A stretch of DNA of 35,745 nt from a virus, in the IMG/VR virus record IMGVR_UViG_3300016476_000979, positions 1 to 35,745 of that record; one strand, 5' to 3'. Both the position numbers and the translations under genes were made by a program. The notes beneath the pieces are model-generated. The model had not been told where the DNA came from. It saw nothing but the letters and a program-made list of their open reading frames with translations, and did not search any database. Shown here piece by piece: positions 2,031-35,745 of the stretch. How positions within the stretch are numbered: position 1 is the stretch's first letter; each line of letters opens with the position of its first letter.

Positions 2031-2630
2031 ATGCGTGGGGACGTGCCACCTGAGACGCGAGACGCCATTCGCCGCTGGATGCGGTCGGTGTTGAGCGAGA
2101 AGAATTGGACCGCCAATCGGTGGGCCAAGCTGGCGGGCACGTCGCCCACCAACATCACCCGGTTTCTGAACCCGGCCTCGACTATTGTGCCGTCGTCCGA
2201 CACGATCTCGAAGCTGGCGATGGTGGCTGGAAGCCTGCCGGAATTGGGCAGTGCTGTGCCGTCAACGCCAGTCCATATGGTGCCGCTGCGCAGCTGGGCT
2301 TCGCTGGGCCGGGCGCGGTTCAAGCCTATAGGCCATGTCCCGACCACGATGGCCGCATCGTCGGAAGCTTTTGCGGTCAACTGCGAGAGCGATGCGTTGG
2401 ATCTTGGTGGCGTGAGCGTCGGCGACACCCTGATTTGCGAGCCGCCGCGTCTTTATAAACCCGCCAAGGGGCGGATTTGCTTAATGAAGATTGCGAGCCG
2501 TGTGCATTTGGGGATCTATGCCCCGCCCGTGTTGATGCCCAAGAGCACCAACCCCCAACACATAGCGCTGCCCATTGAGAACAGCGATGTGTTGGGTGTG
2601 GCAGTCTCGATCATTCGCTCGCTAGCATAG
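2031..2630 (+). CDS. CI-like prophage repressor (N-terminal HTH, C-terminal S24/LexA-like domain)
   Basis: AAGGAG at 2019-2024 sits 6 nt before the ATG at 2031. NWTANRWAKLAGTSPTNITRFL is the HTH. The C-terminal AFAVNCESDALDLGGVSVGDTLICEP...GRICLMKIASR follows the S24 layout, and the linker has an Ala-Gly (MVAGSL). The 1971 start was rejected because it lies inside the operators. Confidence 0.75.
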   Translation: MRGDVPPETRDAIRRWMRSVLSEKNWTANRWAKLAGTSPTNITRFLNPASTIVPSSDTISKLAMVAGSLPELGSAVPSTPVHMVPLRSWASLGRARFKPIGHVPTTMAASSEAFAVNCESDALDLGGVSVGDTLICEPPRLYKPAKGRICLMKIASRVHLGIYAPPVLMPKSTNPQHIALPIENSDVLGVAVSIIRSLA

Positions 2631-2931
2631 CTTCGATCTCGTCAGACAACGCAGCATTGTCGTTGGCGGCGGCGTCTTTGGGGAAGCCCCGCTCGATCAT
2701 GCGTTGCCGAGTGCGATGCGAAATGATCTCGACCTTGGGGCCGTCGATCTCGGTGGCATCGGCATTGTCGATGCACAAGGCGCGACCATCCTCGGCCCAT
2801 TGCAGCCGCCACAATTGATCGGGGCGGAACAGCAATTGATAGGCACGGATGGTCTCGGCCGTCATCTCGACCATTGAAACTTTTGAATAGTCCCAATGCA
2901 CCAAAAGATATTGCTTGGGGTTGCGGCTCAT
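2611..2931 (-). CDS. Hypothetical protein (106 aa), convergent with and overlapping the repressor 3' end by 20 nt
   Basis: MSRNPKQYLLVHWDYSKVSMVEMTAETIRAYQLLFRPDQLWRLQWAEDGRAL... has clean protein-like composition. The longer ORF to 3114 has a junk N-terminus. Confidence 0.6.
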   Translation of the reverse strand: MSRNPKQYLLVHWDYSKVSMVEMTAETIRAYQLLFRPDQLWRLQWAEDGRALCIDNADATEIDGPKVEIISHRTRQRMIERGFPKDAAANDNAALSDEIEAMLASE

Positions 2932-2942
2932 GATGTGTCCTT

Positions 2943-3041
2943 TCAACGCACAAAAATATCGATCACGAACGCGACACTCATGCTGACAATGACAATCATG
3001 GTCAGCAGGAATGTTTCTTCGTCGACGCTGGGTTCTTTCAT
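2943..3041 (-). CDS. Small membrane peptide (32 aa)
   Basis: MKEPSVDEETFLLTMIVIVSMSVAFVIDIFVR contains one TM helix. ATGA overlap with the upstream gene stop (3038-3041). Confidence 0.45.
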   Translation of the reverse strand: MKEPSVDEETFLLTMIVIVSMSVAFVIDIFVR

Positions 3042-3193
3042 TTGTCCGTATCCTCGTCCCAAACATCGAACAGCGAATTGAAGATGGTCGCATCGTCTTT
3101 GTCGCTGTCGCCAATCAGTTGCACGCCGAGACAAGCGGCGACCAAACGGATTTCGCGCGCATCCAAGGCTTCGATCAGGAAGTCGTCTTGCAT
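3038..3193 (-). CDS. Small acidic protein (51 aa)
   Basis: GGAGGATACAACA precedes the ATG at 3193. MQDDFLIEALDAREIRLVAACLGVQLIGDSDKDDATIFNSLFDVWDEDTDK. Confidence 0.55.
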   Translation of the reverse strand: MQDDFLIEALDAREIRLVAACLGVQLIGDSDKDDATIFNSLFDVWDEDTDK

Positions 3194-3241
3194 TGTTGTA
3201 TCCTCCAAGTGGGAAGTGCCAGACCACCATGGTCGGGCCAT

Positions 3242-3296: not shown

Positions 3297-3539
3297 TCAG
3301 TAAAGGACGGAGTCATCCACGACTGCGTTATCGGGGATATACCAAAGCTGGCTCATGCGATGCTCGGCATCCTGCACAATCTCGCTGACTTCGGAGATCG
3401 TGCGCGCCAACCACAGCTGCGCAATCGCAAGCTCTTGGATGAACTCGCCATGGCTGACGCAGCCCTCGTCCCATATATGACGCCGGTCGGCCAAGGCTTG
3501 CTGCACATGGCGGAGGAAGGTGGTGTTCTCAATTGCCAT
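3297..3539 (-). CDS. Hypothetical protein (80 aa)
   Basis: GGAGAAATAC precedes the ATG at 3539. MAIENTTFLRHVQQALADRRHIWDEGCVSHGEFIQELAIAQLWLARTISEVSEIVQDAEHRMSQLWYIP... Confidence 0.65.
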   Translation of the reverse strand: MAIENTTFLRHVQQALADRRHIWDEGCVSHGEFIQELAIAQLWLARTISEVSEIVQDAEHRMSQLWYIPDNAVVDDSVLY

Positions 3540-3923: not shown

Positions 3924-3954
3924 AAAAAAAGGCCGAGAGCTTGCGCTCCCGGCC
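3924..3954 (-). terminator. Rho-independent terminator (minus strand)
   Basis: Minus strand reads GGCCGGGAG-CGCAAG-CTCTCGGCC followed by TTTTTTT, 9 nt after the stop at 3963. The loop is similar to that of the 3242-3274 terminator. Confidence 0.75.
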
Positions 3955-3962
3955 ATCACCTC

Positions 3963-4481
3963 TCAGTCCTGCGTTTCGACGCCGTTCGTGTTCATCAGGC
4001 TGGGGTCCAGCTTGGTGAAGCGAGCAGCACGCGCCATCGCATCTGATGTGGGAACCTTGCGGGGCGGCAGCTTCGGCTCGGGTTCCACGAACTCCTTGCC
4101 GGTGTGCAGGGCATAGACGGCCTTCGTCTCACGCAGCATGTCCGTGAGCGTGGCTTCCTGCATTTCTAGCTGCTCAACCCAATCGCACGCGCGGTTGAGT
4201 TTGTTCTCGCTGATCTCGTCGCCACGATGCTCACGTTGCAGGCGTGCGACATCCTTGAGCGCCTGATCCAGCTTGTCTTTGGTGAGATTGAGCTGATAGC
4301 AGACGGTCCGCGCTATACCGGCGAGCACCATCATCTGTGTGTAGGCCATGCCATTGCGGACTTCTTCACCGTCCTCGCCTGCACGGCGAATGACGGGATT
4401 GTGAAACAGCGCAGCGATAGCCTTGACAGGCGCAGCGAACGGAGAAACCGGGACTTCTTTTTTCGTGACCAAGCGAACCAT
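3963..4481 (-). CDS. Hypothetical protein (172 aa)
   Basis: AAGGATCACATC precedes the ATG at 4481. Composition is coherent (MVRLVTKKEVPVSPFAAPVKAIAALFHNPVIRRAGEDGEE...). I recognised no family motif. Confidence 0.7.
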   Translation of the reverse strand: MVRLVTKKEVPVSPFAAPVKAIAALFHNPVIRRAGEDGEEVRNGMAYTQMMVLAGIARTVCYQLNLTKDKLDQALKDVARLQREHRGDEISENKLNRACDWVEQLEMQEATLTDMLRETKAVYALHTGKEFVEPEPKLPPRKVPTSDAMARAARFTKLDPSLMNTNGVETQD

Positions 4482-4559
4482 GATGTGATCCTTTCCTAAG
4501 ATCGTATGTGGTTGATTTCATTTTGCTTTTTTCTAAACACACAAAGGTGGGGAATTAAT

Positions 4560-4952
4560 CGGACGGCACCACTCCAGGCTTGATCGCGCAGTTTTACCTT
4601 GAACGGCATACAAGCCGGGTCGCGCTGCCTCTGGGGCCTTTGTAGTCGGCGAATCGTCGTCTTCTTTATGGCCGTCGCCGTTGAACCTTTCGGCGCACGG
4701 AGCCGAACTTGGGCTGCAATGCCCCCTGCCGAAGGTCGATTTCTGCGGGCAACAAATGAGAATGCAGGCGCGCCGCCTTGCCCGCAGAAATCGAGGGCTT
4801 GCAGACCGAACGGCCCGTGGGACAAAGGTCAACGGTGGAGCGACGGCCCAACAGAAGACGCACGCTGGCTACAAGCCACAGAGACACGCGAATCCGGTGC
4901 GTGCTGCCATTCAAAGGGAAAGCGCGATCAAGCCGACGAGTGGTGTCGTCCG
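4560..4952. repeat. Long imperfect palindrome / foldback element (two ~190-bp inverted arms, apical 12-bp perfect stem)
   Basis: Arm 4560-4589 pairs with 4922-4952 at 28 positions (one G:T, one small bulge). Further inverted blocks follow inward. Apical stem: 4741-4752 ttctgcgggcaa with 4777-4788 ttgcccgcagaa. No credible ORF in any frame. Confidence 0.8.
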
Positions 4953-5076
4953 ATCCATCCTCACCGCTCTCCATTCATACCGTCTGCGCTAGGGATCGAA
5001 GCCCGTAAGGGCCGAGACGCCAAACAGAGTGCAGGCGGCTCGGTTCACGAGAGCCCGTCAGCGCCCAACCGGTCCC

Positions 5077-5105
5077 TTGACAGCATCTATGCAGTGCCCT
5101 CTATC
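5077..5105 (+). promoter_or_regulatory. Candidate promoter of the packaging/structural operon, overlapped by one copy of the palindrome
   Basis: TTGACA at 5077-5082. The palindrome CAGCATCTATGCAG (5081-5094, 1 mismatch) overlaps the -35. CCTCTATC at 5098-5105 resembles the Caulobacter-type GCTANAWC -10. terS ATG is at 5138. Confidence 0.45.
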
Positions 5106-5137
5106 TAAATATTACGTGCTTCTCCCTGAGTGCAGAC

Positions 5138-5530
5138 ATGCCCAAAGTCCCCGCGAAACTGCCCGAACAGGCAGACAAGCTGACCGAGAAACAGAACGCT
5201 TTCGTTGATGCGTATGTAGCGAATGGCGGACGCGGCACACAGGCTGCGCGAGACGCCGGTTACGCAGACAAATCAGCGCACGTTGAAGCCAACAGACTTC
5301 TCAAGAACCCATTGATATTGCAAGAGATTTACCGCAGGACCGTGATGGAGCTCGGGGCCTCTGCACCACAAGCCTTGGCAACCGTGCGTGAGTTGGCTGT
5401 GAGCGCTAAGAGCGATTACGTCAGGCTCGAAGCGAGCAAGGATATCCTCGATAGAGCTGGCTTGAAGGCTCCTGACAGGGTGGATCAACGCCTAGACGGA
5501 GAGCTGAGGGTGGTCATCGACCTGTCCTGA
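5138..5530 (+). CDS. terS: Terminase small subunit (Terminase_2 type)
   Basis: LTEKQNAFVDAYVANGGRGTQAARDAGYADKSAHVEANRLLKNPLILQEIYRR is the characteristic HTH block of Terminase_2 small subunits. Confidence 0.85.
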   Translation: MPKVPAKLPEQADKLTEKQNAFVDAYVANGGRGTQAARDAGYADKSAHVEANRLLKNPLILQEIYRRTVMELGASAPQALATVRELAVSAKSDYVRLEASKDILDRAGLKAPDRVDQRLDGELRVVIDLS

Positions 5531-15767: not shown

Positions 15768-18572
15768 ATGGCGATTAAACCCGACGAACAGCAAACGATG
15801 GTTCAGCCGTCCAACCGGCTGATCCGCGAGTTTCGCACTGATTTGCCGGATCCGTCCGATTATGCGGTGCAACGCTTTGCCGCGACGATTGGCGAAGCGG
15901 GCGAAGCCTTGGCCAAGTCCGAAGCCAAGAACGCTGCCCAAACCGCCGCCTATTCCGCGCCGCTCGGCAAAGACGAGAACGGCAATTATATTAAGCCCGA
16001 AGTGCCGGAAAACTTTGGCTTGTTTGCGCGCGACGTGTTCAACGAAATCGTTACGCAACGCTCCGCCAATATGGCGGTGACTGATTTTGAAAGCTTTGCG
16101 CTTAAAGTGCGGGCCGAAAAAGCCGATGACCCGGCAGGCGGAGCCGCCCTCATCGACGCCAATCTGAAAGGTCGTCTGGCGGCTTTGCCACCGGAGATGC
16201 GCGGTCGCGTCGAAGGCGCGATGATGCGCGAGCGCAACCAGCATGTCGGCACGATGGAGCTTGAACATGCGCGCAAGGTCGAGCGCCAGACCCTTGAAGG
16301 CATTAAGACCGATGTCACGACCTTCACCCAAAAAGCGCTCGATGCGGCCAAGGTCAATACGCCAGAGGGCGATGCGCAGGCTGCCGCTCACCTTGATTTG
16401 GTCGAGCAATCGATTGGCGCATTGGTCGCCAAGCGGGTTCTGCCCGAAAACGCCCTGACGAATTTTAAGGAAACCCGCACCGGGATCATGGCGGGCGGTA
16501 AGATCATCGCCCAAGTCTATCAACGGCTGAAAGAAAACAATCTGCAAGAGGCCGATCTGGTCGATCTCGAGCGCATTGTCCGTTCGCCGTGGGCGGATGA
16601 GAATGTGTTGCAGATTCGCAGCGAAGATATTCGCAAGACCTTGACCACGGATGAAGCGCGCGCGGCAGTGGCCAGTGAACTGCGCAATATGCGCGGGCTG
16701 TTGACCAAGCAATTTGCCGAGAATGCCGAAGCGGCCGCGATCAATGGCGTTGTCGAGCAAGTGCGCAAAAACGGCAAGGCCGGAATGCCCATCGATATGA
16801 GCGACACGCTCAAAGAAAAAACGATGCGCACATGGGCGCAGCAGGAAGGCTTAACGGTCAACGGGTCGCTGCCCCTGACCCCGCAAGTGCTGGACCGGCT
16901 GCAAGGCACGTTTGGCGAATTGCCCAAGAAATCGATTGAAGCGTTGTTCCGCAACCCCAACACGCTGACGCCCGATGAGATCGAGGCGCGCTATGAGACG
17001 TTCCGACATTTGAACGGGATGCGCACCGGCAGTAATGACACGACGCCTGCGATTGGCATTCTCAATGAGCGCGACTTTGCGTTCATGAAGCAATACCAAT
17101 TTGCCCGCGAAACCGGGGCCAGCCCCAAAGCTGCTTATGACTCAGCCAACGACATGCTCAAGCGAGGCAAGGTCGAAACCGTATCGCCCTCGGCAGTGAC
17201 CGAAGCGGTGCGCCGGAAATATTCAGCGGAGAGCACATTTCCAAAAGAAACCCAAGATGTGGAAAAATTGCTGCGCAATTATTTCCCGTCCGATCCCAAT
17301 TCCGTGATGGGCAAGCCGCCCGTCACGGCCATGAGCCTTGCGCAACGCCAGACGGTGCTGGGCGTGGCGTTGCAGACCATGGCGTATAACGAAAACCTCA
17401 AAACCGCTGAGGCTATCGAATATGCCATGAAGCGGTTCATGACGACCCATACCTATGATCCCACCATTGCGGGCGAAGGCGGCATGGTCGGGGGCTTTGT
17501 GCCTAAGACGCAAGCCATCCCGTCGATCTATGACATCAAAGAGCGCAGCGAGACGGCGCGCACGACGGATTACGTCAAGCCTTATATCGATGCCTTGCTG
17601 CGTGCCGACAAAGATCTCAAGCCTGCCTTCAATCCTGCGGACAAGGATCGTTTGATCCCGCGCAACCAAGGCGGCTGGTCGCTACCGATGGATGACAGCC
17701 AGCTTAAATATGGCGAGAACATCGCGCTCAAACCAATTGGCGTCGATACTGAGAATCCCGGCTTTCAGCTTGTTTACAAGCTCGACAATATGCGCGGCTG
17801 GGCCCCGGTTCAAAACAACAAGCGCGAGAACGTCATCGTCTATTTGGGCGACGCGGCCAAGAAACAAGACGCCTTCGCGCGTGAATTGTCGCTCGATTAT
17901 GCCCGTTCGAGCGCGTTGGCCGAGAAGATGAATGCAGAGCAACTGGCCGCAGGCGGCACGGATTTCGTGGCCAAGCCCGATAGCCCGCGTTCGGGCGAGC
18001 GGCCTTTGGGCATGATTGACGTTCAATCAATCATTGCGCCATCCCCCAATGCCAATAGCCGTGGCACGCCGGGGCTCAAGCAGCAGCCGGGCCAACGCCC
18101 GATGCAATTGCGCGACGATGGCGGGGAGCCGATCTTGCAGCGGCTTGGCCAATTTGTCGTGCCAGGCAAAACCGCCGCCATTCTCAATCAGGTCGATCAA
18201 ACCTTTGCGCAGAGCATGGCAGCCATGGTCGAAGCCATGCCCGACGAGATCCGCAAAGGCTTCTTTATTTCCTCGGCCTATCGCACGGTTGAAGAACAGG
18301 CCGACATTTTTGCTAAGCATGTCGTCAAATATGGCACTGAAGAACGGGCGCGCAAATGGGCCGCCCCGGCTGGCAAATCGTTCCACAATCACGGCAAGGC
18401 CATGGATTTGCGCTTTGCCAATACATCGGTGCGCGATTGGGTTCACCAAAATGCTGCGCAATTTGGTCTGCATTTTCCCATGAAACATGAGCCGTGGCAC
18501 ATCGAGCCGATTAACGCGCGCAAGATGCGCTCTGCATCCTTGTTGGATGGCGATACTGAGGAAGCCGTATGA
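15768..18572 (+). CDS. Internal virion/ejection protein with C-terminal peptidase M15 (VanY-like) cell-wall hydrolase domain
   Basis: 934 aa. The C-terminal SSAYRTVEEQ...APAGKSFHNHGKAMDL...HEPWHIEP matches the zinc D,D-/L,D-peptidase M15 signature (S.YR, H..G.A.D, E.WH). Confidence 0.8.
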   Translation: MAIKPDEQQTMVQPSNRLIREFRTDLPDPSDYAVQRFAATIGEAGEALAKSEAKNAAQTAAYSAPLGKDENGNYIKPEVPENFGLFARDVFNEIVTQRSANMAVTDFESFALKVRAEKADDPAGGAALIDANLKGRLAALPPEMRGRVEGAMMRERNQHVGTMELEHARKVERQTLEGIKTDVTTFTQKALDAAKVNTPEGDAQAAAHLDLVEQSIGALVAKRVLPENALTNFKETRTGIMAGGKIIAQVYQRLKENNLQEADLVDLERIVRSPWADENVLQIRSEDIRKTLTTDEARAAVASELRNMRGLLTKQFAENAEAAAINGVVEQVRKNGKAGMPIDMSDTLKEKTMRTWAQQEGLTVNGSLPLTPQVLDRLQGTFGELPKKSIEALFRNPNTLTPDEIEARYETFRHLNGMRTGSNDTTPAIGILNERDFAFMKQYQFARETGASPKAAYDSANDMLKRGKVETVSPSAVTEAVRRKYSAESTFPKETQDVEKLLRNYFPSDPNSVMGKPPVTAMSLAQRQTVLGVALQTMAYNENLKTAEAIEYAMKRFMTTHTYDPTIAGEGGMVGGFVPKTQAIPSIYDIKERSETARTTDYVKPYIDALLRADKDLKPAFNPADKDRLIPRNQGGWSLPMDDSQLKYGENIALKPIGVDTENPGFQLVYKLDNMRGWAPVQNNKRENVIVYLGDAAKKQDAFARELSLDYARSSALAEKMNAEQLAAGGTDFVAKPDSPRSGERPLGMIDVQSIIAPSPNANSRGTPGLKQQPGQRPMQLRDDGGEPILQRLGQFVVPGKTAAILNQVDQTFAQSMAAMVEAMPDEIRKGFFISSAYRTVEEQADIFAKHVVKYGTEERARKWAAPAGKSFHNHGKAMDLRFANTSVRDWVHQNAAQFGLHFPMKHEPWHIEPINARKMRSASLLDGDTEEAV

Positions 18573-21500
18573 GTGACGTTGCTTACGCCCAAGATCCGCG
18601 TCTCGATCTTATTGCGCAACCCGTCACGTCGCTAAACCCGCCGCCGCCCGGTGGCTTCGTCCAGAATGTGTGGGACGAAGTCATGACCTCGTGGTGGGTC
18701 GGCGAAATCAACAAGCTGCAAGATTTCAATGTGCCTGCCGCCGAAGGCTATGATCCGCTCTATGATGAGCGCATCAAGGGCAAAGAGCCCTATGTCGATT
18801 ATCTGCGCGAAGCGCGCTCGCCAGAACATTTCGACGCGATCTGGAACCGCCTGACGACCTATGAGCAGAAGCGCATGCGGCTGACGGAAGAAGGCGGTCT
18901 TGCCTCCGCCTTGACGGCAGGCGTGATCGACCCGGCCAATCTTGTGCCGTTTGGCGTCGGACGCGGCGTTGGTGTGTTGCGCGGGGCTTTGCTCGGCGGG
19001 GCTTCGACGGCAGCCGTGACGCTCGGCACGCAAATCATCCAAGACCAATCGGTGCCGGTCAGCCGCGAAGAAATGGCCTGGGGCACGGCCATGGGTTTTG
19101 GCTTTGGCTCGCTGTTTGGCGGCGTCATTGGGCGCAATATTCCTGACAATGCGCAATTGAGCGAACTCAGCCGCACCGTGCAGACGCAGGCCAAGGTGCT
19201 CGATGATGCGATCACCAGTGGCTTGATGCCCAACCCTTATGCGGCTGCGCCTGCAACGCCGTTTGAGGTGCGCCCGACCACGCCCAACGCGGTTGGCGTG
19301 GCTTCGGCTTTTGGTTTGGAAAAAGTGGTGTCCAAGCTTGGTAATTTTGGCGCGTTGATCAGTGCGCCATTTCGGGGCTTTGAGGATCTTGGCCATGCGC
19401 TTGCAGGCGAAGGCGATCTTCTGACCAAGCGCAACAAGCTGGCGCTTGAAGAAGGTGGCGGGTCAACACAGGAGTCAGCGCATTTGCGCTCGCTCTATTG
19501 GCAGGGCCGCGCTTCGGTTTTGCTGCAAGACATTGAATCGATCTATGCCCGCTATATCGGCGGCGGCGACACGCAATTCAAATTGGGTGGCGTGAATGTG
19601 CCGGTGACGTTCCAGCGCATGAAACAGGCGATCACCGGGCGCGGTCCTGACGGCAAGATGTCGCTCAACGAGTTCCATGCGGCTGTGTCACGCGCGCATA
19701 AACGCGACCGCATCGAGACGGATGATCCCTTTGTGCGCGAAGCGGTTGAGAAAACCCGCGCCTATTACGAAGAATTTAAGAAGGCTGGCCTTGAGTCCGG
19801 CATGATCGTGGCGAAGGAAAATGTCGAGCGCATTGCCACGCGATTGGCCAATTGGACCGGATCGAAGAAGGTTCGGCTGGCTGAATTAGAGGCCAAAGAC
19901 ACGCTGACCGCCAATGAAAAGGCGGAAGTCAAATTGCTCAATGATGCCATTCGCTATGGCGAACAGCGCGGGCGTTTGTATAGCACGGCTTTGCGGAGCA
20001 AGAGCGTGCCAAAGCCCCCGGCCCCGCCTGTGTCGCCGCGTCCGACGCGCGAAACGGTGCGCGCTATCAATGACGATTTTTCGTCGGCATCTCCAACAAG
20101 CGACAAATTTATCAACATCAATGAGCTGCAAGACGATGATCCGCAATGGCTCTATCACGGCACAAATGTGAGGCTAAACGGACGCTTTACAGAGTTTGTT
20201 GATCAAAATGGCAATCTTCGCTTAAAGGCCAGTTATCAATCTTTGGATAAACGGGTGAGTGTGTCATTTACGCCGTTTGTCGAAACGGCAAAAGACTATG
20301 CAACGCGTGAGAAGGGTGGTGGCCCCAATGCCCGCAATGTTTCTGGCGCGGGCATCTTTGTTATCGACCGGGAATATTTGCCAAATTTAGAACAGCGGTC
20401 TGGCGAAGCGCTATCTTCGCCAACGGACATTGTGATTCCACCTGACGGTTGGAAGTTTGCAACATTGCAAAGCAATGACGTAAAGTTTTTGGAAGAACTA
20501 AAAGCCGATATTGCCTCTTTTATCAATGAACTCAATGGCAAGTCGAATAAAGAGCTTCTCGACCTTATTCGGGATCAAAACATTGATGTCGAAGTAAAAG
20601 AAGCAAACTATGGTTCAGAACAAGATATTTCTGGCGTCGGCAAAAATAGCGAATACGCGCAATGGTATCTTGAAAATTTTGACAGAGAAGGGCTGGACAT
20701 CAAAGTCTATGCTGCATCGCAATTATTGATTCAGCGCGGCATTACTGACGCTGAAATTAAAGCGTATACAAAAGAACTTAATGACAGTTGGGCTTCGGAC
20801 TATGCGGTTGAAAGCCGCAATAGCCTTGAAAAGTTTATTGAGCGGTTTGACGCCGTTAAACCTTATGACGCGGTTTCTGATTTAGAGGCGTTGCGCCAAC
20901 AACAATCCGCTGGCGTCGTCAACACGCGCTCGATGCTGAACCCGACCGACGCGCCACGGATGCGCGGTCCGGCCAATGCCAATGATGAACCCTATATTGG
21001 CCCTGAGAACGAAGCCAATTACCTCAACCGCATTTGGGCGCTCGACAAAGTGCTTGCGGATGAGGCTGGCCCACAAAAGCTGCGCGCTGTGTTGATGGAA
21101 TGGTATCGCGATAACCCGCTGCCTGACAATCTCGACCGCATCGACGCTCTGATGAACGATCTGATTGCGTATAAAACCAGCAAGAACCCGAATAGCGTTG
21201 ATCTCTTGGCCAAGCTTGAACGCTTGAGCGAAGAAGCGCCGGGTCTGACGCAGAAGCAATATGATCTGATGGTCAAGCTGCGCACGGAGTTAACGCAGAC
21301 CAAAACCTTCTCGCCCAAACAATGGGAGTTCTTTGACAAACTGACCGAGCAATGGCGCAAAGAACGCGGCAAGGTTGATTTCCGCAACACTGATGACGCC
21401 ATCGAAGCGCGGGTCGACCGCACGATTGCCCATATCCTCAAGACGGCAGAGCTTGGCGAGTATCAGGTGGGCCGGGCGCTTGAGACCCCTGCCCTGGCCC

Positions 21501-23023
21501 GCGACCTTAACATTCCCAACGAGTTGGTGTGGGATTTTATCGAAGACGACATCTCGGTTTTGATCCGGTCTTATGCCCAGCGCATGGGCCCAGCGGTCGA
21601 ATATGGCCGCATGTTCGGATCCCGCGATGCGGAAATGGCGATCCATGACGCTGCCTTGCAAGCGGCCAAGGAAGCGAAGGGGCCGACCGATCGCGCTATT
21701 CTCGATCAGGTTGAAACCCATATGAACCAAGCGCGTGCGGTGCGCGACGATGTGCTGCGCGATTCCTATGCCGCCAACCCCTTGTCGCTCAATCGCAAGA
21801 TCGTGCAGGGCATGAGCGCCTATACGATGATTACGACATTGAGCAGCGCTTTGGTGACCTCGCTCTCGGAAATGGCCAAGCCTCTGATGATGTGGGGGTT
21901 TGGCCGGTCGTTTTCGTTTGCCATGAAGGCGATGAATGACCGCGAAGCCTTCGAAGGCATTAAGCGCGACGTGCAAGTCTTGACGGCAGGCGGGCTTGAA
22001 GCGGCTCTGCACATGCACGCACAGCGGTTTGCTGAGCAAGGCGGCGTCTTGGGCGGCTCGCAGAACTTTGCCGGACGCTTGTTCGATAGCGCCAATCGCA
22101 AGCTCATTAACTTCGCCAATGGCCCGTATTTTGTGCTCAATTTGCTGGGCCCTTTTACGGACATCCTCAAGAATTATACGGGCGTCATGTCGGCGCATTT
22201 CTTGATTGATGACGCGCGGGCGATTGCAGCGGGCAAGGCTGATAAGCGCACGCTGGCCAATTGGCGGGGCCTGTCATTGACCGAGGATGACGCGGCCCGT
22301 CTCGCGGCGATGCCGATTGAAGATCATAAAGGGCTCAACCTGACCAATATTGCGGCGTGGCCGGATCAGGATTTGGTGCGCAAATTTGGCGCAGCGGTCG
22401 CCTCCGAACAGCGTCGAGCTGTGGTGACCGCAGGCCCGGCTAACGTGCCAGACATCGCGCGGGGCTTTGTCGGGCTAGGCGACAAACGGCGGGAGTTTGC
22501 CTATTTGCGCCTGCCGTTTTTGCTGATGAACTTTGCCTTTGCTTCGGTCAACAAGACCCTGCTTTCAGCGCTGCAAGGCCGTGATGCCAACGCCATTATG
22601 GGGGCTGTCACCATGATTGGTGCAGCCTATATGGTGCAGAAGCTCAAAACCTCGGATGCTGCATGGGACCGCATGGACGAAAGCGAAAAACTGCTGCGGG
22701 CGATTGAGAACTCCGGCTTGTTGGCGGTGATGGGGGACATCAATTCCAAGCTCGAAAGCCTAACCCGCAGCCAGATGGGCGTGCGTCCGGCCTTGGGAAT
22801 GGAACCGCGCATGGGCGAATTGTCCACTGATGCGTTCGAACCCTATAGCGCATTGGGTCCGTTGGGCACGCGCGGGGCAGATCTTTATCAATTGTTCTTC
22901 GACAATTCGCTGGCCACCCGCGACCAATCGCGGATCTTGCGGCGGGCGTTGGTGCCGGAGTTGTTCTATCTCAAACCCTTGTTTGATCAGGCTGAACGGG
23001 GGGCGTTAGAGGCCATCGATTAG
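18569..23023 (+). CDS. Giant internal virion/ejection protein (T7 gp16 position), 1484 aa, with a low-GC inserted module
   Basis: ATGA-coupled to the upstream gene. It has hydrophobic Gly-rich segments near the N-terminus and C-terminus. The in-frame A/T-rich block at about 20090-20890 begins with WLYHGTNVRLNG. Confidence 0.8.
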   Translation: MSDVAYAQDPRLDLIAQPVTSLNPPPPGGFVQNVWDEVMTSWWVGEINKLQDFNVPAAEGYDPLYDERIKGKEPYVDYLREARSPEHFDAIWNRLTTYEQKRMRLTEEGGLASALTAGVIDPANLVPFGVGRGVGVLRGALLGGASTAAVTLGTQIIQDQSVPVSREEMAWGTAMGFGFGSLFGGVIGRNIPDNAQLSELSRTVQTQAKVLDDAITSGLMPNPYAAAPATPFEVRPTTPNAVGVASAFGLEKVVSKLGNFGALISAPFRGFEDLGHALAGEGDLLTKRNKLALEEGGGSTQESAHLRSLYWQGRASVLLQDIESIYARYIGGGDTQFKLGGVNVPVTFQRMKQAITGRGPDGKMSLNEFHAAVSRAHKRDRIETDDPFVREAVEKTRAYYEEFKKAGLESGMIVAKENVERIATRLANWTGSKKVRLAELEAKDTLTANEKAEVKLLNDAIRYGEQRGRLYSTALRSKSVPKPPAPPVSPRPTRETVRAINDDFSSASPTSDKFININELQDDDPQWLYHGTNVRLNGRFTEFVDQNGNLRLKASYQSLDKRVSVSFTPFVETAKDYATREKGGGPNARNVSGAGIFVIDREYLPNLEQRSGEALSSPTDIVIPPDGWKFATLQSNDVKFLEELKADIASFINELNGKSNKELLDLIRDQNIDVEVKEANYGSEQDISGVGKNSEYAQWYLENFDREGLDIKVYAASQLLIQRGITDAEIKAYTKELNDSWASDYAVESRNSLEKFIERFDAVKPYDAVSDLEALRQQQSAGVVNTRSMLNPTDAPRMRGPANANDEPYIGPENEANYLNRIWALDKVLADEAGPQKLRAVLMEWYRDNPLPDNLDRIDALMNDLIAYKTSKNPNSVDLLAKLERLSEEAPGLTQKQYDLMVKLRTELTQTKTFSPKQWEFFDKLTEQWRKERGKVDFRNTDDAIEARVDRTIAHILKTAELGEYQVGRALETPALARDLNIPNELVWDFIEDDISVLIRSYAQRMGPAVEYGRMFGSRDAEMAIHDAALQAAKEAKGPTDRAILDQVETHMNQARAVRDDVLRDSYAANPLSLNRKIVQGMSAYTMITTLSSALVTSLSEMAKPLMMWGFGRSFSFAMKAMNDREAFEGIKRDVQVLTAGGLEAALHMHAQRFAEQGGVLGGSQNFAGRLFDSANRKLINFANGPYFVLNLLGPFTDILKNYTGVMSAHFLIDDARAIAAGKADKRTLANWRGLSLTEDDAARLAAMPIEDHKGLNLTNIAAWPDQDLVRKFGAAVASEQRRAVVTAGPANVPDIARGFVGLGDKRREFAYLRLPFLLMNFAFASVNKTLLSALQGRDANAIMGAVTMIGAAYMVQKLKTSDAAWDRMDESEKLLRAIENSGLLAVMGDINSKLESLTRSQMGVRPALGMEPRMGELSTDAFEPYSALGPLGTRGADLYQLFFDNSLATRDQSRILRRALVPELFYLKPLFDQAERGALEAID

Positions 23024-30730: not shown

Positions 30731-30974
30731 TCAGCACCTGATGAATGTCGCGCGCCATGCGCTTGATGTTGACGTAAACCATGTCGCACAACTCGAACTC
30801 CTCGCCGCCAAACTGTTCGGCAAGAAACTGGCAGCGTTCGGCCTCGATGCGAAGTTTGCGCATGACAGTGCGAATGGTGGCACGGTCATGCAGCGGGATC
30901 TCAAGCCGCAAAGATTGCGGGTAGATCTTGCGCTGGAATTTGCGCTTAGGCAGCTTCGGTGGCCTGGGTTGCAC
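30633..30974 (-). CDS. Hypothetical protein; 3' end uncertain (98-nt overlap with the next gene)
   Basis: GTG start. Codon usage is normal down to about 30730. Downstream of the next gene's ATG it turns to rare codons (agt, cga, agg, gga, ata). Confidence 0.4.
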   Translation of the reverse strand: MQPRPPKLPKRKFQRKIYPQSLRLEIPLHDRATIRTVMRKLRIEAERCQFLAEQFGGEEFELCDMVYVNIKRMARDIHQVLNEQKASARSRNESDARPGRGIRQAKRLVERDG

Positions 30975-31395
30975 GGGCTAAATCCCTATAGACAGCAAAC
31001 GCAAAAGCGCGCAGTTTCTGGTCGGACTCGGCGAGCGCCTTGGCTTCCCATTGCGCGATGACATCAAGCAACTTGCGCTCATCAGTCAGTTGTAAAGCGG
31101 CACGCACTTCTAAGACGTGATGCGCGATAGCCCCCTGCCCTTGATCGATCATGGCTTGCGCGCGCTCGATGCCGTGCATGACCGTGGTGTGGTCTTTGCG
31201 AAAGCACTTGCCAATGGTCGGATAGGATTTGAGCAGATAATGGCGGGCAATATACCAGACCACCCAACGCGCTTGACTGATTTTCACCGTGCGCCGTTCG
31301 CCATAGAGATCCACCAACGGCACGCCGGTCACAATGCTGGTGGCTTTGGCCACATCGCTGATCTTGGGCAGCGTTGGAATATCGACCACGATCAT
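30946..31395 (-). CDS. DnaA domain IV (C-terminal DNA-binding domain)-only protein
   Basis: ISQARWVVWYIARHYLLKSYPTIGKCFRKDHTTVMHGIERAQAMI matches the DnaA C-terminal HTH (R.IAMYL.R.LT..S...IG..F.RDHTTV.HA). ATGA-coupled to the ardC-like gene. Confidence 0.8.
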   Translation of the reverse strand: MIVVDIPTLPKISDVAKATSIVTGVPLVDLYGERRTVKISQARWVVWYIARHYLLKSYPTIGKCFRKDHTTVMHGIERAQAMIDQGQGAIAHHVLEVRAALQLTDERKLLDVIAQWEAKALAESDQKLRAFAFAVYRDLARATQATEAA

Positions 31396-32243
31396 GCGGC
31401 AATCCTCTCTCCGATGCGCGATTGGGCTTTGAGATAGGCGACGGCTTTCGCAGCTTGGCTGGCCGCCGTGACAAGCGCCCGCTTGTCTTTCTTCATCAGG
31501 CCGAGCCATGCTTTGAGATAGGCAGCATGATCCTCGCGCACGACATTGGCGATGGACCAGTCCGCAGAGAGGAAGGCCGCCCCCATCTCGGCGATCAATT
31601 CCTCGGCGGCATAGGCGTCGGACTTAAAGCGGGTCGACAGTTCGCGGTTGAGCCGGGCCTTGGCCCCGGTCCAGTGGATCAGCTCATGGAAGGCGGTTGA
31701 ATAATAATGCTCGGCGGTGTTGAAGCGCTCGAGCGCAGGCATATGGATGACATCTTGCGCCGGGATATAGCAGGCGCGCTGGCCTTGCTCGATCAGGCTT
31801 GCGCCCGTGGCGCGCAAGAACGCTTCGATCTCTGGCGCACGGTCATGGTGCTTGGGTTCGAACACCGGGGTCGGCGCAGCGCTTTCGACCTGAGCCGGGT
31901 TGAACACATAAGACACCCGCGCAACGATCCGGCTTTCCTCGTCGCCATTGTCGTTGGCCGCTTCGTATTGCTTGAAGAATATAATCGGCGTGCCTTTTTC
32001 GCCTTTGCGCACCTTGGCCCCTTGCGTTTGCCATTGCTTGAAGGTGGCCCAGCGATTGTCCTCATAGCCACGCAGCTGCGCAGTGATCCAGCACATGAAC
32101 ACGTTGCAGCCCTGATACTCATGGCCCGACACGGCATTGCGCGGCATGGTCAGACGGCTGCGATGCCAGGGCGGCGTCCACTCCCCGGCCTCATCGACCA
32201 GTTCAAGCATCCGGTCAGTGACAATCTGATACGCGTCGGACAT
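31392..32243 (-). CDS. ardC: ArdC-like antirestriction protein (N-terminal ssDNA-binding DUF1738 domain plus zincin metalloprotease domain)
   Basis: The N-terminus runs TPPW... NAVSGHEYQGCNVFMCW...ATFKQW...GAKVRKGEKGTPIIFF. The C-terminus has the HELIHWTG metalloprotease motif. Confidence 0.85.
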   Translation of the reverse strand: MSDAYQIVTDRMLELVDEAGEWTPPWHRSRLTMPRNAVSGHEYQGCNVFMCWITAQLRGYEDNRWATFKQWQTQGAKVRKGEKGTPIIFFKQYEAANDNGDEESRIVARVSYVFNPAQVESAAPTPVFEPKHHDRAPEIEAFLRATGASLIEQGQRACYIPAQDVIHMPALERFNTAEHYYSTAFHELIHWTGAKARLNRELSTRFKSDAYAAEELIAEMGAAFLSADWSIANVVREDHAAYLKAWLGLMKKDKRALVTAASQAAKAVAYLKAQSRIGERIAA

Positions 32244-35535: not shown

Positions 35536-35745
35536 TCACAGGCGCAGAGCGTGGCCATTGGCCCGAACTAGGCGTTCGTCCCAGAGTTGCAAAAGCTGCA
35601 CGGTTTTTTCAGCAGCAGCATGGAACTCGGCGGGCAACGGTAAATTTGGGTAGCGATGTGTGCGAATGAGGGTGCGCGCCGCCTCATCGAAGGCGATGGC
35701 GGGCAAATCTTGCAGCGCATGAATGTATCCGCGCAGCCCAAGATC
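35536..35745 (-). CDS. Hypothetical protein, 3' part of the junction-spanning gene (see 1..103)
   Basis: Stop TGA at 35538-35536. The reading frame is continuous with 103..1 once the 22-bp duplicate is removed. Confidence 0.65.
   Translation of the reverse strand, partial: DLGLRGYIHALQDLPAIAFDEAARTLIRTHRYPNLPLPAEFHAAAEKTVQLLQLWDERLVRANGHALRL
35724..35745. repeat. Terminal direct repeat identical to 1..22
   Basis: Exact 22/22 match to the first 22 bases of the window. Confidence 0.9.

Follow-up and report, generated by a model that had tools for sequence, protein, structure and literature searches.

A 397-nt imperfect palindrome between gene X and terS of a temperate phage and its position-matched counterparts in aquatic relatives

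In phage lambda, the leader of the leftward pL transcript carries nutL and an RNase III-sensitive hairpin, followed by gene N and the terminator tL1. Fold-back inhibition of the IS10/Tn10 transposase mRNA, which involves stems of tens of base pairs, masks the translation start only if transcription starts outside the hairpin. In engineered long-hairpin RNAs, C to T or A to G changes in the sense arm give G:U pairing in the transcript and a weaker palindrome in the DNA. Frpo/ssi elements are single-stranded DNA promoters of the leading regions of conjugative plasmids (Masai and Arai 1997, cited in PMC11541004). We analyzed a 35,745-nt stretch of viral DNA (IMG/VR virus record IMGVR_UViG_3300016476_000979, positions 1 to 35,745; hereafter the window), the genome of a temperate phage of 35.7 kb, and identified a 397-nt imperfect palindrome (4558..4954, no strand assigned) in the gap between terS (5138..5530, + strand), which encodes the small terminase subunit, and the first leftward gene, which we call X (3963..4481, - strand). 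The palindrome is this phage’s version of a clade-wide, position-specific class of self-pairing elements and belongs with the structured cis-elements of phage early leaders and divergent control regions. By analogy, the closest known arrangement would be the lambda pL leader, N and tL1. In both cases a long structured leader, putative in our phage, precedes the first leftward early gene and an intrinsic terminator directly follows that gene; in most relatives of the phage, but not in the window itself, the leader would also occlude the ribosome-binding site as in lambda. The hairpin is, however, 2-10 times longer than its lambda counterpart (a stem of ~190 bp in the window and up to ~500 bp in relatives), X is a helical hairpin without similarity to N, and the window has no identified boxA or boxB and keeps its ribosome-binding site outside the hairpin. 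The initial annotation of the window, made from the letters alone, knew of no described phage element of this form and position, and Rfam and literature searches likewise returned no described equivalent.

Repeat searches and RNA and DNA folds agree on a rod-like foldback. Repeat search and self-alignment delimit a left arm on the X side (4558..4752) and a right arm on the terS side (4778..4954), neither with an assigned strand, which meet in a 25-nt apical loop (4753..4777) closed by a perfect 17-bp stem (4736-4752/4778-4794). The initial annotation had listed a series of inverted-repeat blocks, all of which the repeat search recovered, and had placed at the apex a perfect 12-bp stem around a 24-nt loop; the perfect stem exists, with the longer dimensions given here. 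From the outer ends inward, 4558-4574 is 94% complementary to 4938-4954 over 17 nt, 4577-4589 is the perfect 13-nt complement of 4922-4934, 4640-4651 is 83% complementary to 4863-4874, 4658-4678 is 86% complementary to 4840-4860, and 4678-4689 is 83% complementary to 4824-4835. Local alignment of the sequence against its own reverse complement gave 192 aligned pairs, 156 of them Watson-Crick, 10 G:T, 11 A:C and 15 transversion mismatches. The initial annotation was right to describe a mixture of G:T and C:A mismatches, because the whole-arm alignment counts the two types at 10 and 11.

The folding of this segment is far from what its composition predicts. RNA folding of both strands, which the initial annotation had proposed as a check, gave -247.9 kcal/mol (z -14.3) for the + strand of 4558-4954 and -239.5 kcal/mol (z -11.9) for the - strand, and the single-stranded DNA fold reached -147.8 kcal/mol (z -15.2). 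Shuffled controls never matched the native sequence in any of the three folds. When the whole window was scanned in sliding segments of 300 nt, the palindrome gave the strongest fold of the genome at -167 kcal/mol; the scan averaged -109 +/- 13, and its second-best segment reached -138. The window palindrome is real. An assembly artefact can be dismissed because the arms are only ~81% complementary overall and the sequence recurs elsewhere: an ENA contig (L174; loci of the comparison set are cited by L numbers) holds it base for base, and another sample supplied a contig (L179, X 97% identical) that includes the leader and breaks off 12 nt into the left arm.

By family searches and translated comparisons, the gap appears to be non-coding. 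None of its six open reading frames (ORFs) matched Pfam or PHROG, and tblastx of the gap against 86 loci found no translated similarity, in agreement with the earlier claim that it holds no credible gene. The claim that this is the largest non-coding gap of the genome is plausible and rests on reading ORFs rather than on a gene caller; the other candidate gaps, at ~25.1-25.6 kb and ~29.4-29.8 kb, are packed tightly with small ORFs. The Rfam check proposed in the initial annotation found no significant family: covariance models of Rfam 15 gave no gathering-level match in the whole window, and at E <= 10 the region 4400-5200 yielded two chance-level matches only (CRISPR-DR36, 16 bits; MAT2A_A, 14 bits). 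A scan of the window for tRNA and tmRNA genes was empty. Neither end of the palindrome is followed by the T-run of an intrinsic terminator, and the only two terminator-like matches in the gap are 5-bp stems within the left arm. INPHARED contained no sequence homologue of the gap or the palindrome.

To place the element among relatives, we drew on at least ~600 TerL relatives from IMG/VR and at least ~600 from Joint Genome Institute (JGI) metagenomes and compared 52 non-redundant relatives whose TerL is 53-81% identical; each collection scan contributed at most 80 loci. Self-complementarity was scored by local alignment of each locus against its own reverse complement, a score of at least 75 being taken as a palindrome. 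Nearly half of the non-redundant regions upstream of terS (25/52) reached this threshold. The background, 267 segments of 2.5 kb, had a median of 37 and a 95th percentile of 65, with all higher scores falling in the same gap, and no comparable palindrome was found elsewhere in the relatives’ loci. The palindromes range from ~150 nt to 1.17 kb. The closest cultured phage, Pelagibacter phage EXVC031P (TerL 63% identical), carries one of ~190 nt in the same gap, and matches to metagenome-assembled genomes suggest alphaproteobacterial hosts. Relatives of EXVC031P seem to be common both in the sea and in fresh water, and their genomes are almost entirely without annotation.

The conserved feature is the position and not the sequence. 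In the collections searched, no relative had a palindrome that could be aligned with that of the window. The nearest relatives (L175, L176 and L178; X 70-72% identical) have only 4985-5137 in common with the window; their slot holds unrelated, GC-rich sequence that is weakly rod-like (z -2.6 to -4.7) and closed by a conserved 17-bp stem, and the slot of L001 and L003 holds a branched structure (z ~-3.6). By these comparisons, the palindrome is lineage-specific in sequence and conserved in position across the aquatic phage clade. In one of the nearest relatives, the slot (L178 ~2560-2950, reverse strand) is purine-rich with repeated GAGCG-type units (z -2.6). A GARGAAYG motif in the apical loop was considered as a feature common to the window and its marine relatives, and probably arose by chance because only five loci match it.

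In most lineages the palindrome is built around the start of X. Its centre lies 89-117 nt upstream of the X ATG, at exactly 92 nt in six loci, and the left arm usually reaches 37-46 nt into the gene; the right arm therefore mirrors the X 5' untranslated region (UTR), the Shine-Dalgarno sequence, the ATG and ~13 codons. The Shine-Dalgarno and AUG positions are Watson-Crick paired at least as often (75-81%) as their flanks (64-70%). This complementarity of an upstream segment to a translation start is also what IS10/Tn10 shows, but the stem here is far longer and no outside leftward transcription is expected from the terS side. A small covarying hairpin stands 8-12 nt 5' of the X Shine-Dalgarno sequence in relatives (L049 ~3180-3200, L041 ~3400-3420), with stems such as GCGAGG-GTGGT-CCTCGC, TCGGG-ATAG-CCCGA and CCGGGG-GCGGT-CCCCGG at a fixed distance to the ribosome-binding site. 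It recalls a boxB-type site and is absent from the AT-rich leader of the window.

Four lineages carry giant palindromes of 1.0-1.2 kb (L041 2944-3977, L052 4372-5405, L168 74-1241 and L151 566-1662), in which the left arm is the entire gene X. In L041 and L168, the only two checked for this, the left arm takes in the X terminator too. The right arm of the giant variants is a non-coding, degenerate inverted copy of ~500 nt that extends almost to terS. L041, L168 and L151 are mutually 40-49% identical, yet their arms each retain roughly 75-80% complementarity. These variants, a gene plus its wobble mirror copy, may be something new in kind.

Comparisons of close relatives point to selection on pairing. 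The palindromes of L041 and L052 are 94.8% identical over 1,034 nt, and their 54 differing sites include five double compensatory changes against a rough expectation of ~0.3; across seven independent close pairs we counted 16 such double changes. Divergence between L041 and L052 is 5.4% in the non-coding right arm and 0.7% in the central 150 nt, compared to 7.1% in X, 8.9% in the upstream genes and 12-24% at third codon positions. In addition, several lineages seem to avoid long perfect duplexes: no perfect run of L041 exceeds 11 where 18 is expected (P = 0.001), and L146 and L132 give similar results. Both the compensatory changes and the slow evolution of the arm come from comparisons among the relatives, the window copy having no relative that can be aligned with it.

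The transcription signals around the gap suggest how such an element could be used. Just past the X stop codon of the window is a strong intrinsic terminator (3931..3954, - strand), a 10-bp stem GGCCGGGAGCGCAAGCTCTCGGCC followed by TTTTTTT; a scan located one in L041 (2948-2969), and the one in L168 was seen by eye only, the scan having missed it. Its place directly after X makes X a short, self-contained transcription unit, so that genes further left would require read-through or a promoter of their own. On the other side, a terS promoter is predicted by eye at 5076..5106 (+ strand; CTTGACA-N18-CTATCT, region GTCCCTTGACAGCATCTATGCAGTGCCCTCTATCTAAAT); it is invariant in the four closest relatives and was missed by the stricter rule of the consensus scanner. 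Because this promoter is downstream of the palindrome, the palindrome is not a terS leader made from it. A predicted leftward promoter, TTGTCA-N18-TATACT, matches at 10/12 positions in L041 and L049 and at 9/12 in L155, with estimated start sites 24-50 nt outside the right arm in these three loci. In several relatives (L041 4003-4048, L049 3430-3475, L140 1036-1080) the two promoters are divergent and back to back with a single shared -35 box (TTGACA/TTGTCA), wrapped in an operator-like inverted repeat GTGACGTA...ACGTCAC. In these phages the pair probably acts as a switch under repressor control. L041 also carries, a short distance downstream of the terS promoter, a G-tract motif, AATGGGGGGAGAGAGGGAGAGGGGGGC (4071-4097), which recurs in the marine loci L140, L113, L051, L072, L155, L087, L127 and L073 but not in the window. 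The motif could fold into a G-quadruplex and may be a pac or leader signal.

Our tentative preference, held well short of confidence, is that the palindrome gives the 5' leader of the X transcript a long, irregularly paired hairpin. Among the three roles offered in the initial annotation (hairpin RNA, DNA cruciform and inserted foldback element), the hairpin RNA fits best on account of the position, the compensatory changes, the mirroring of the start region, the predicted leftward promoter and the terminator, with support that comes from the relatives. RNA polymerase would start at a leftward promoter back to back with that of terS, read through the palindrome from the right arm over the apex to the left arm, continue across the AT-rich 5' UTR and X, and stop at the intrinsic terminator 3931-3954. 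Pairing of the two arms would turn this part of the transcript into a rod of ~190 bp in which mismatches are frequent. In most relatives, the X Shine-Dalgarno sequence, the AUG and ~13 codons would fall within the 3' arm, and the hairpin could mask translation initiation until it is unwound or cleaved, RNase III or another double-strand-specific RNase being a candidate for the cleavage. The window palindrome ends 77 nt from the X ATG, leaving the start codon and the ribosome-binding site outside the stem, so its hairpin would be a processing, stability or insulating module rather than a mask of the ribosome-binding site. That the window hairpin is transcribed, from which promoter and on which strand, that an RNase acts on it and that it affects X are all points that we infer.

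Several observations weigh against a leader hairpin. The window is an outlier in the clade, its palindrome centred 274 nt from the ATG and its arms without contact with X, and a hairpin so distant and so clear of the ribosome-binding site is maybe a different device. Its nearest relatives, as noted, fill the slot with unrelated sequence that is only weakly rod-like. The window copy bears no selection signal of its own, wobble pairs being split 10:11 and run lengths chance-like. Neither the window nor its GC-rich relatives yielded an identifiable leftward promoter, and an X promoter within the AT-rich spacer could leave the palindrome untranscribed. The promoter match of L041 is itself at chance level (1 found, 1.6 expected), and the leftward promoter carries weight only because it recurs in three lineages. 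The strand of the mismatches is a further difficulty. In the parts of the relatives’ palindromes that overlap X coding sequence, G:T on the + strand accounts for 156 transition mismatches against 46 (43:0 in L041 and 37:7 in L168). Since a + strand G:T is an A.C in the X mRNA, selection on a leader hairpin would produce the reverse pattern.

The same counts, a pattern that keeps wobble pairs on one strand, favour a functional hairpin in the + strand, either as a rightward RNA that is antisense to X and then pairs back with the mirror copy, or as single-stranded + DNA. We consider such a hairpin possible but doubtful. In its DNA version the + strand would be exposed as the lagging-strand template of rightward forks or as the strand displaced in rolling-circle replication, and the hairpin could serve as a priming signal or an Frpo-like promoter. 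The mirror copy is the X sense strand with A to G and C to T changes, third codon positions not being enriched, and changes from Watson-Crick pairs among close relatives produce + strand wobble more often than - strand wobble (32:17). Mutation pressure as the full cause of the bias was rejected: the + strand keto skew at third codon positions (0.06-0.18) would give an estimated ratio of ~1.6:1, not 43:0. The non-coding parts of the palindromes are nevertheless unbiased (80:95), as is the window. The lower folding energy of the + strand was also set aside as evidence for a + RNA, because that strand folds better in 89% of control segments too; the advantage is largely a matter of genome-wide composition, which the palindromes exceed at just P = 0.026. 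One + strand promoter-like site (9/12) lies ~35 nt left of the L168 palindrome, but sigma-70 matches left of the arms (L168, L029, L021, L073) are weak and inconsistent and most lineages have no consistent + promoter there. A mirrored functional terminator was not found on the + strand of the L041 right arm.

In its shape, the element resembles the Frpo/ssi promoters: those are long imperfect stem-loops of a few hundred nucleotides upstream of early genes, among which the window has the anti-restriction gene ArdC, and one DNA strand of our palindrome forms just such a long imperfect hairpin (z -15.2). The best-folding strand in the giant relatives is the template of the downstream genes, as an Frpo-type device needs the + strand to be for X, and both ArdC and a replication protein that bears a DnaT domain are encoded in the window. 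Against this, the window stem contains no -35/-10 pair at the ~17-bp spacing of those promoters; neither strand of the gap showed a sigma-70-like pair, and among the relatives’ palindromes only L027 bears one, in the right arm. Moreover, this is a double-stranded DNA phage packaged by a terminase (terS, TerL, portal, integrase), with no known single-stranded entry stage, and no relaxase or oriT was seen among the window ORFs scanned. The strand evidence could not be reconciled with any single-strand model. As a speculation, both strands may be transcribed, with a wobble code that permits the duplex in one transcript and cripples it in the X mRNA.

It is conceivable, though we would not count on it, that the clade holds a strand-selective ‘wobble-coded’ hairpin, an undescribed cis-element made of a non-coding mirror of the X start region, whose copy in some lineages would span the whole gene and its terminator over ~500 nt. 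The A to G and C to T substitutions, together with evenly spaced mismatches, would allow the duplex in one strand only and no stable palindrome in the DNA. Engineered long-hairpin RNAs offer the parallel, the non-coding arms of L041 and L168 differing from the sense sequence nearly always by A to G or C to T (43:0 and 37:7), with perfect runs of at most 14 bp. Unlike these designs, the case is natural and phage-borne, and the window palindrome is without the bias. If real, the wobble-coded hairpin would be a natural long-hairpin or antisense device that could time the production of protein X or shield overlapping early and late transcripts, and the 397-nt rod of the window would count as a fully non-coding example.

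Explanations that dispense with RNA function were weighed against the same data. A functionless by-product, in which the gap is a hotspot of recurrent inverted duplication (for example through fold-back priming or template switching at a small central hairpin) and the copies later decay, seems rather unlikely to us. It would account for a slot that turns over faster than its flanking genes, with unrelated sequence at 70% identity of X and in L001 and L003, for arms that vary in length from ~70 to 580 nt while the centre stays nearly in place, and for window mismatches of every type, unbiased and with chance-like runs; a phage-encoded recombination set (YqaJ exonuclease, Erf and a PHROG-annotated resolvase) is at hand. 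Decay does not explain why the non-coding arm is more conserved than its coding neighbours in L041 and L052, the one pair compared, or why double compensatory changes occur in several lineages. A packaged genome of 35 kb is unlikely to retain 0.4-1 kb of useless DNA across half of the lineages, and neither arm of the window resembles neighbouring sequence that might have been its source.

We judge it unlikely that the element acts as double-stranded DNA or as a cruciform, be it a packaging site, an origin of replication or recombination, or a supercoil sensor between divergent promoters. The location directly upstream of terS is suggestive, because pac or cos sites often lie there, and an AT-rich tract (4500-4557) adjoins the palindrome. 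The mismatch types of the window are symmetric, its DNA fold is as good as its RNA folds, and the short perfect runs of L041, L146 and L132 are expected if long perfect DNA palindromes are harmful. Yet arms that are interrupted by a mismatch at least once in 11 bp extrude poorly. The region 4400-5200 has no iterons, just chance-level two-copy direct repeats. A protein-binding site should be conserved in sequence, but here even close relatives carry different sequence, next to a promoter block that does not vary. The cruciform proposed in the initial annotation is matched by the fold and leaves the strand-specific wobble bias of the relatives, unexpected for a double-stranded element, without an explanation; a packaging or origin site would also have no reason to follow the X start or the whole X unit, as the arms do.

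Insertion of a small mobile element between the two promoters, the foldback miniature inverted-repeat transposable element (MITE) of the initial annotation, is very improbable. Small size, a foldback shape and terminal inverted repeats of 17 nt are traits of foldback MITEs of the Correia, RUP and ERIC type, and the sequence is absent from close relatives. The element is, however, single-copy: no second copy was found in the window, in the 86 loci by blastn, in IMG/VR by two exact-pattern scans or in INPHARED, and an exact 17-mer of the apical stem had six matches in IMG/VR, an estimated chance expectation, none of them palindromic. There is no target-site duplication, the flanks GGGGAATTA and CCATCCTCA sharing only a self-complementary AT that is itself part of the stem. 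The palindromes of other lineages stand at the one syntenic site and are built from local sequence (X or its start region).

If the leader hairpin that we tentatively prefer is a selected control element, a main control point of the life cycle would lie where the leftward and packaging operons meet, and the element would offer a handle on X. The giant variants, if truly wobble-coded, would be a rare natural case of sequence ‘coded’ for pairing in one strand only. Were the palindromes a mere by-product, the locus would mark a hotspot of recurrent palindrome formation in small phage genomes.

The surroundings of the palindrome are those of a junction between operons. Rightward from 5138 run terS, whose assignment in the initial annotation is confirmed by matches to phrog_51 and PF03592 (Terminase_2), TerL, a T7-type portal gene and structural genes. 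Leftward from 4481 come X, small ORFs, a DUF1064 protein (labelled Holliday-junction resolvase in PHROGs) and an O-like replication protein with a DnaT domain; beyond the assembly junction are YqaJ exonuclease, Erf, a helix-turn-helix regulator, ArdC and an integrase. X is a 172-aa helical-hairpin protein of no known family, related to more than 150 ‘hypothetical’ proteins; its AlphaFold2 model (predicted local distance difference test score, pLDDT, 73) is a two-helix hairpin whose structural matches are generic coiled coils only. Between X and the palindrome, and outside the latter, is the AT-rich spacer with the X 5' UTR and the Shine-Dalgarno sequence GGAAAGGA (4482..4557, - strand), which is partly conserved in the nearest relatives. 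On the terS side, a block conserved in the nearest relatives (4985..5065, no strand) holds two small hairpins, GCCCGTAAGGGC, a GNRA-type mini-hairpin, and GCCGAG...CTCGGC, a stem with a variable loop. The segment 4985-5106 is kept in L175, L176, L178, L001 and L003, and the neighbouring 400 nt is replaced.

The genome was assembled as a circle. Its first 22 nt (1-22) equal its last 22 nt (35724-35745), for a unique length of 35,723 bp, and this repeat, a mere assembly overlap, says nothing of the physical ends. On the - strand, the window encodes ArdC (31392-32243; an ArdC N-terminal domain plus a zincin peptidase), the replication initiator with the DnaT DNA-binding domain (126-893) and a protein with a DnaA C-terminal helix-turn-helix (30946-31509). 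The GC fraction falls to 0.478 at 20001-21000, compared to ~0.58 for the genome, inside a gene for a 1,484-aa protein (18569-23023); this dip may be a horizontally exchanged or host-range module.

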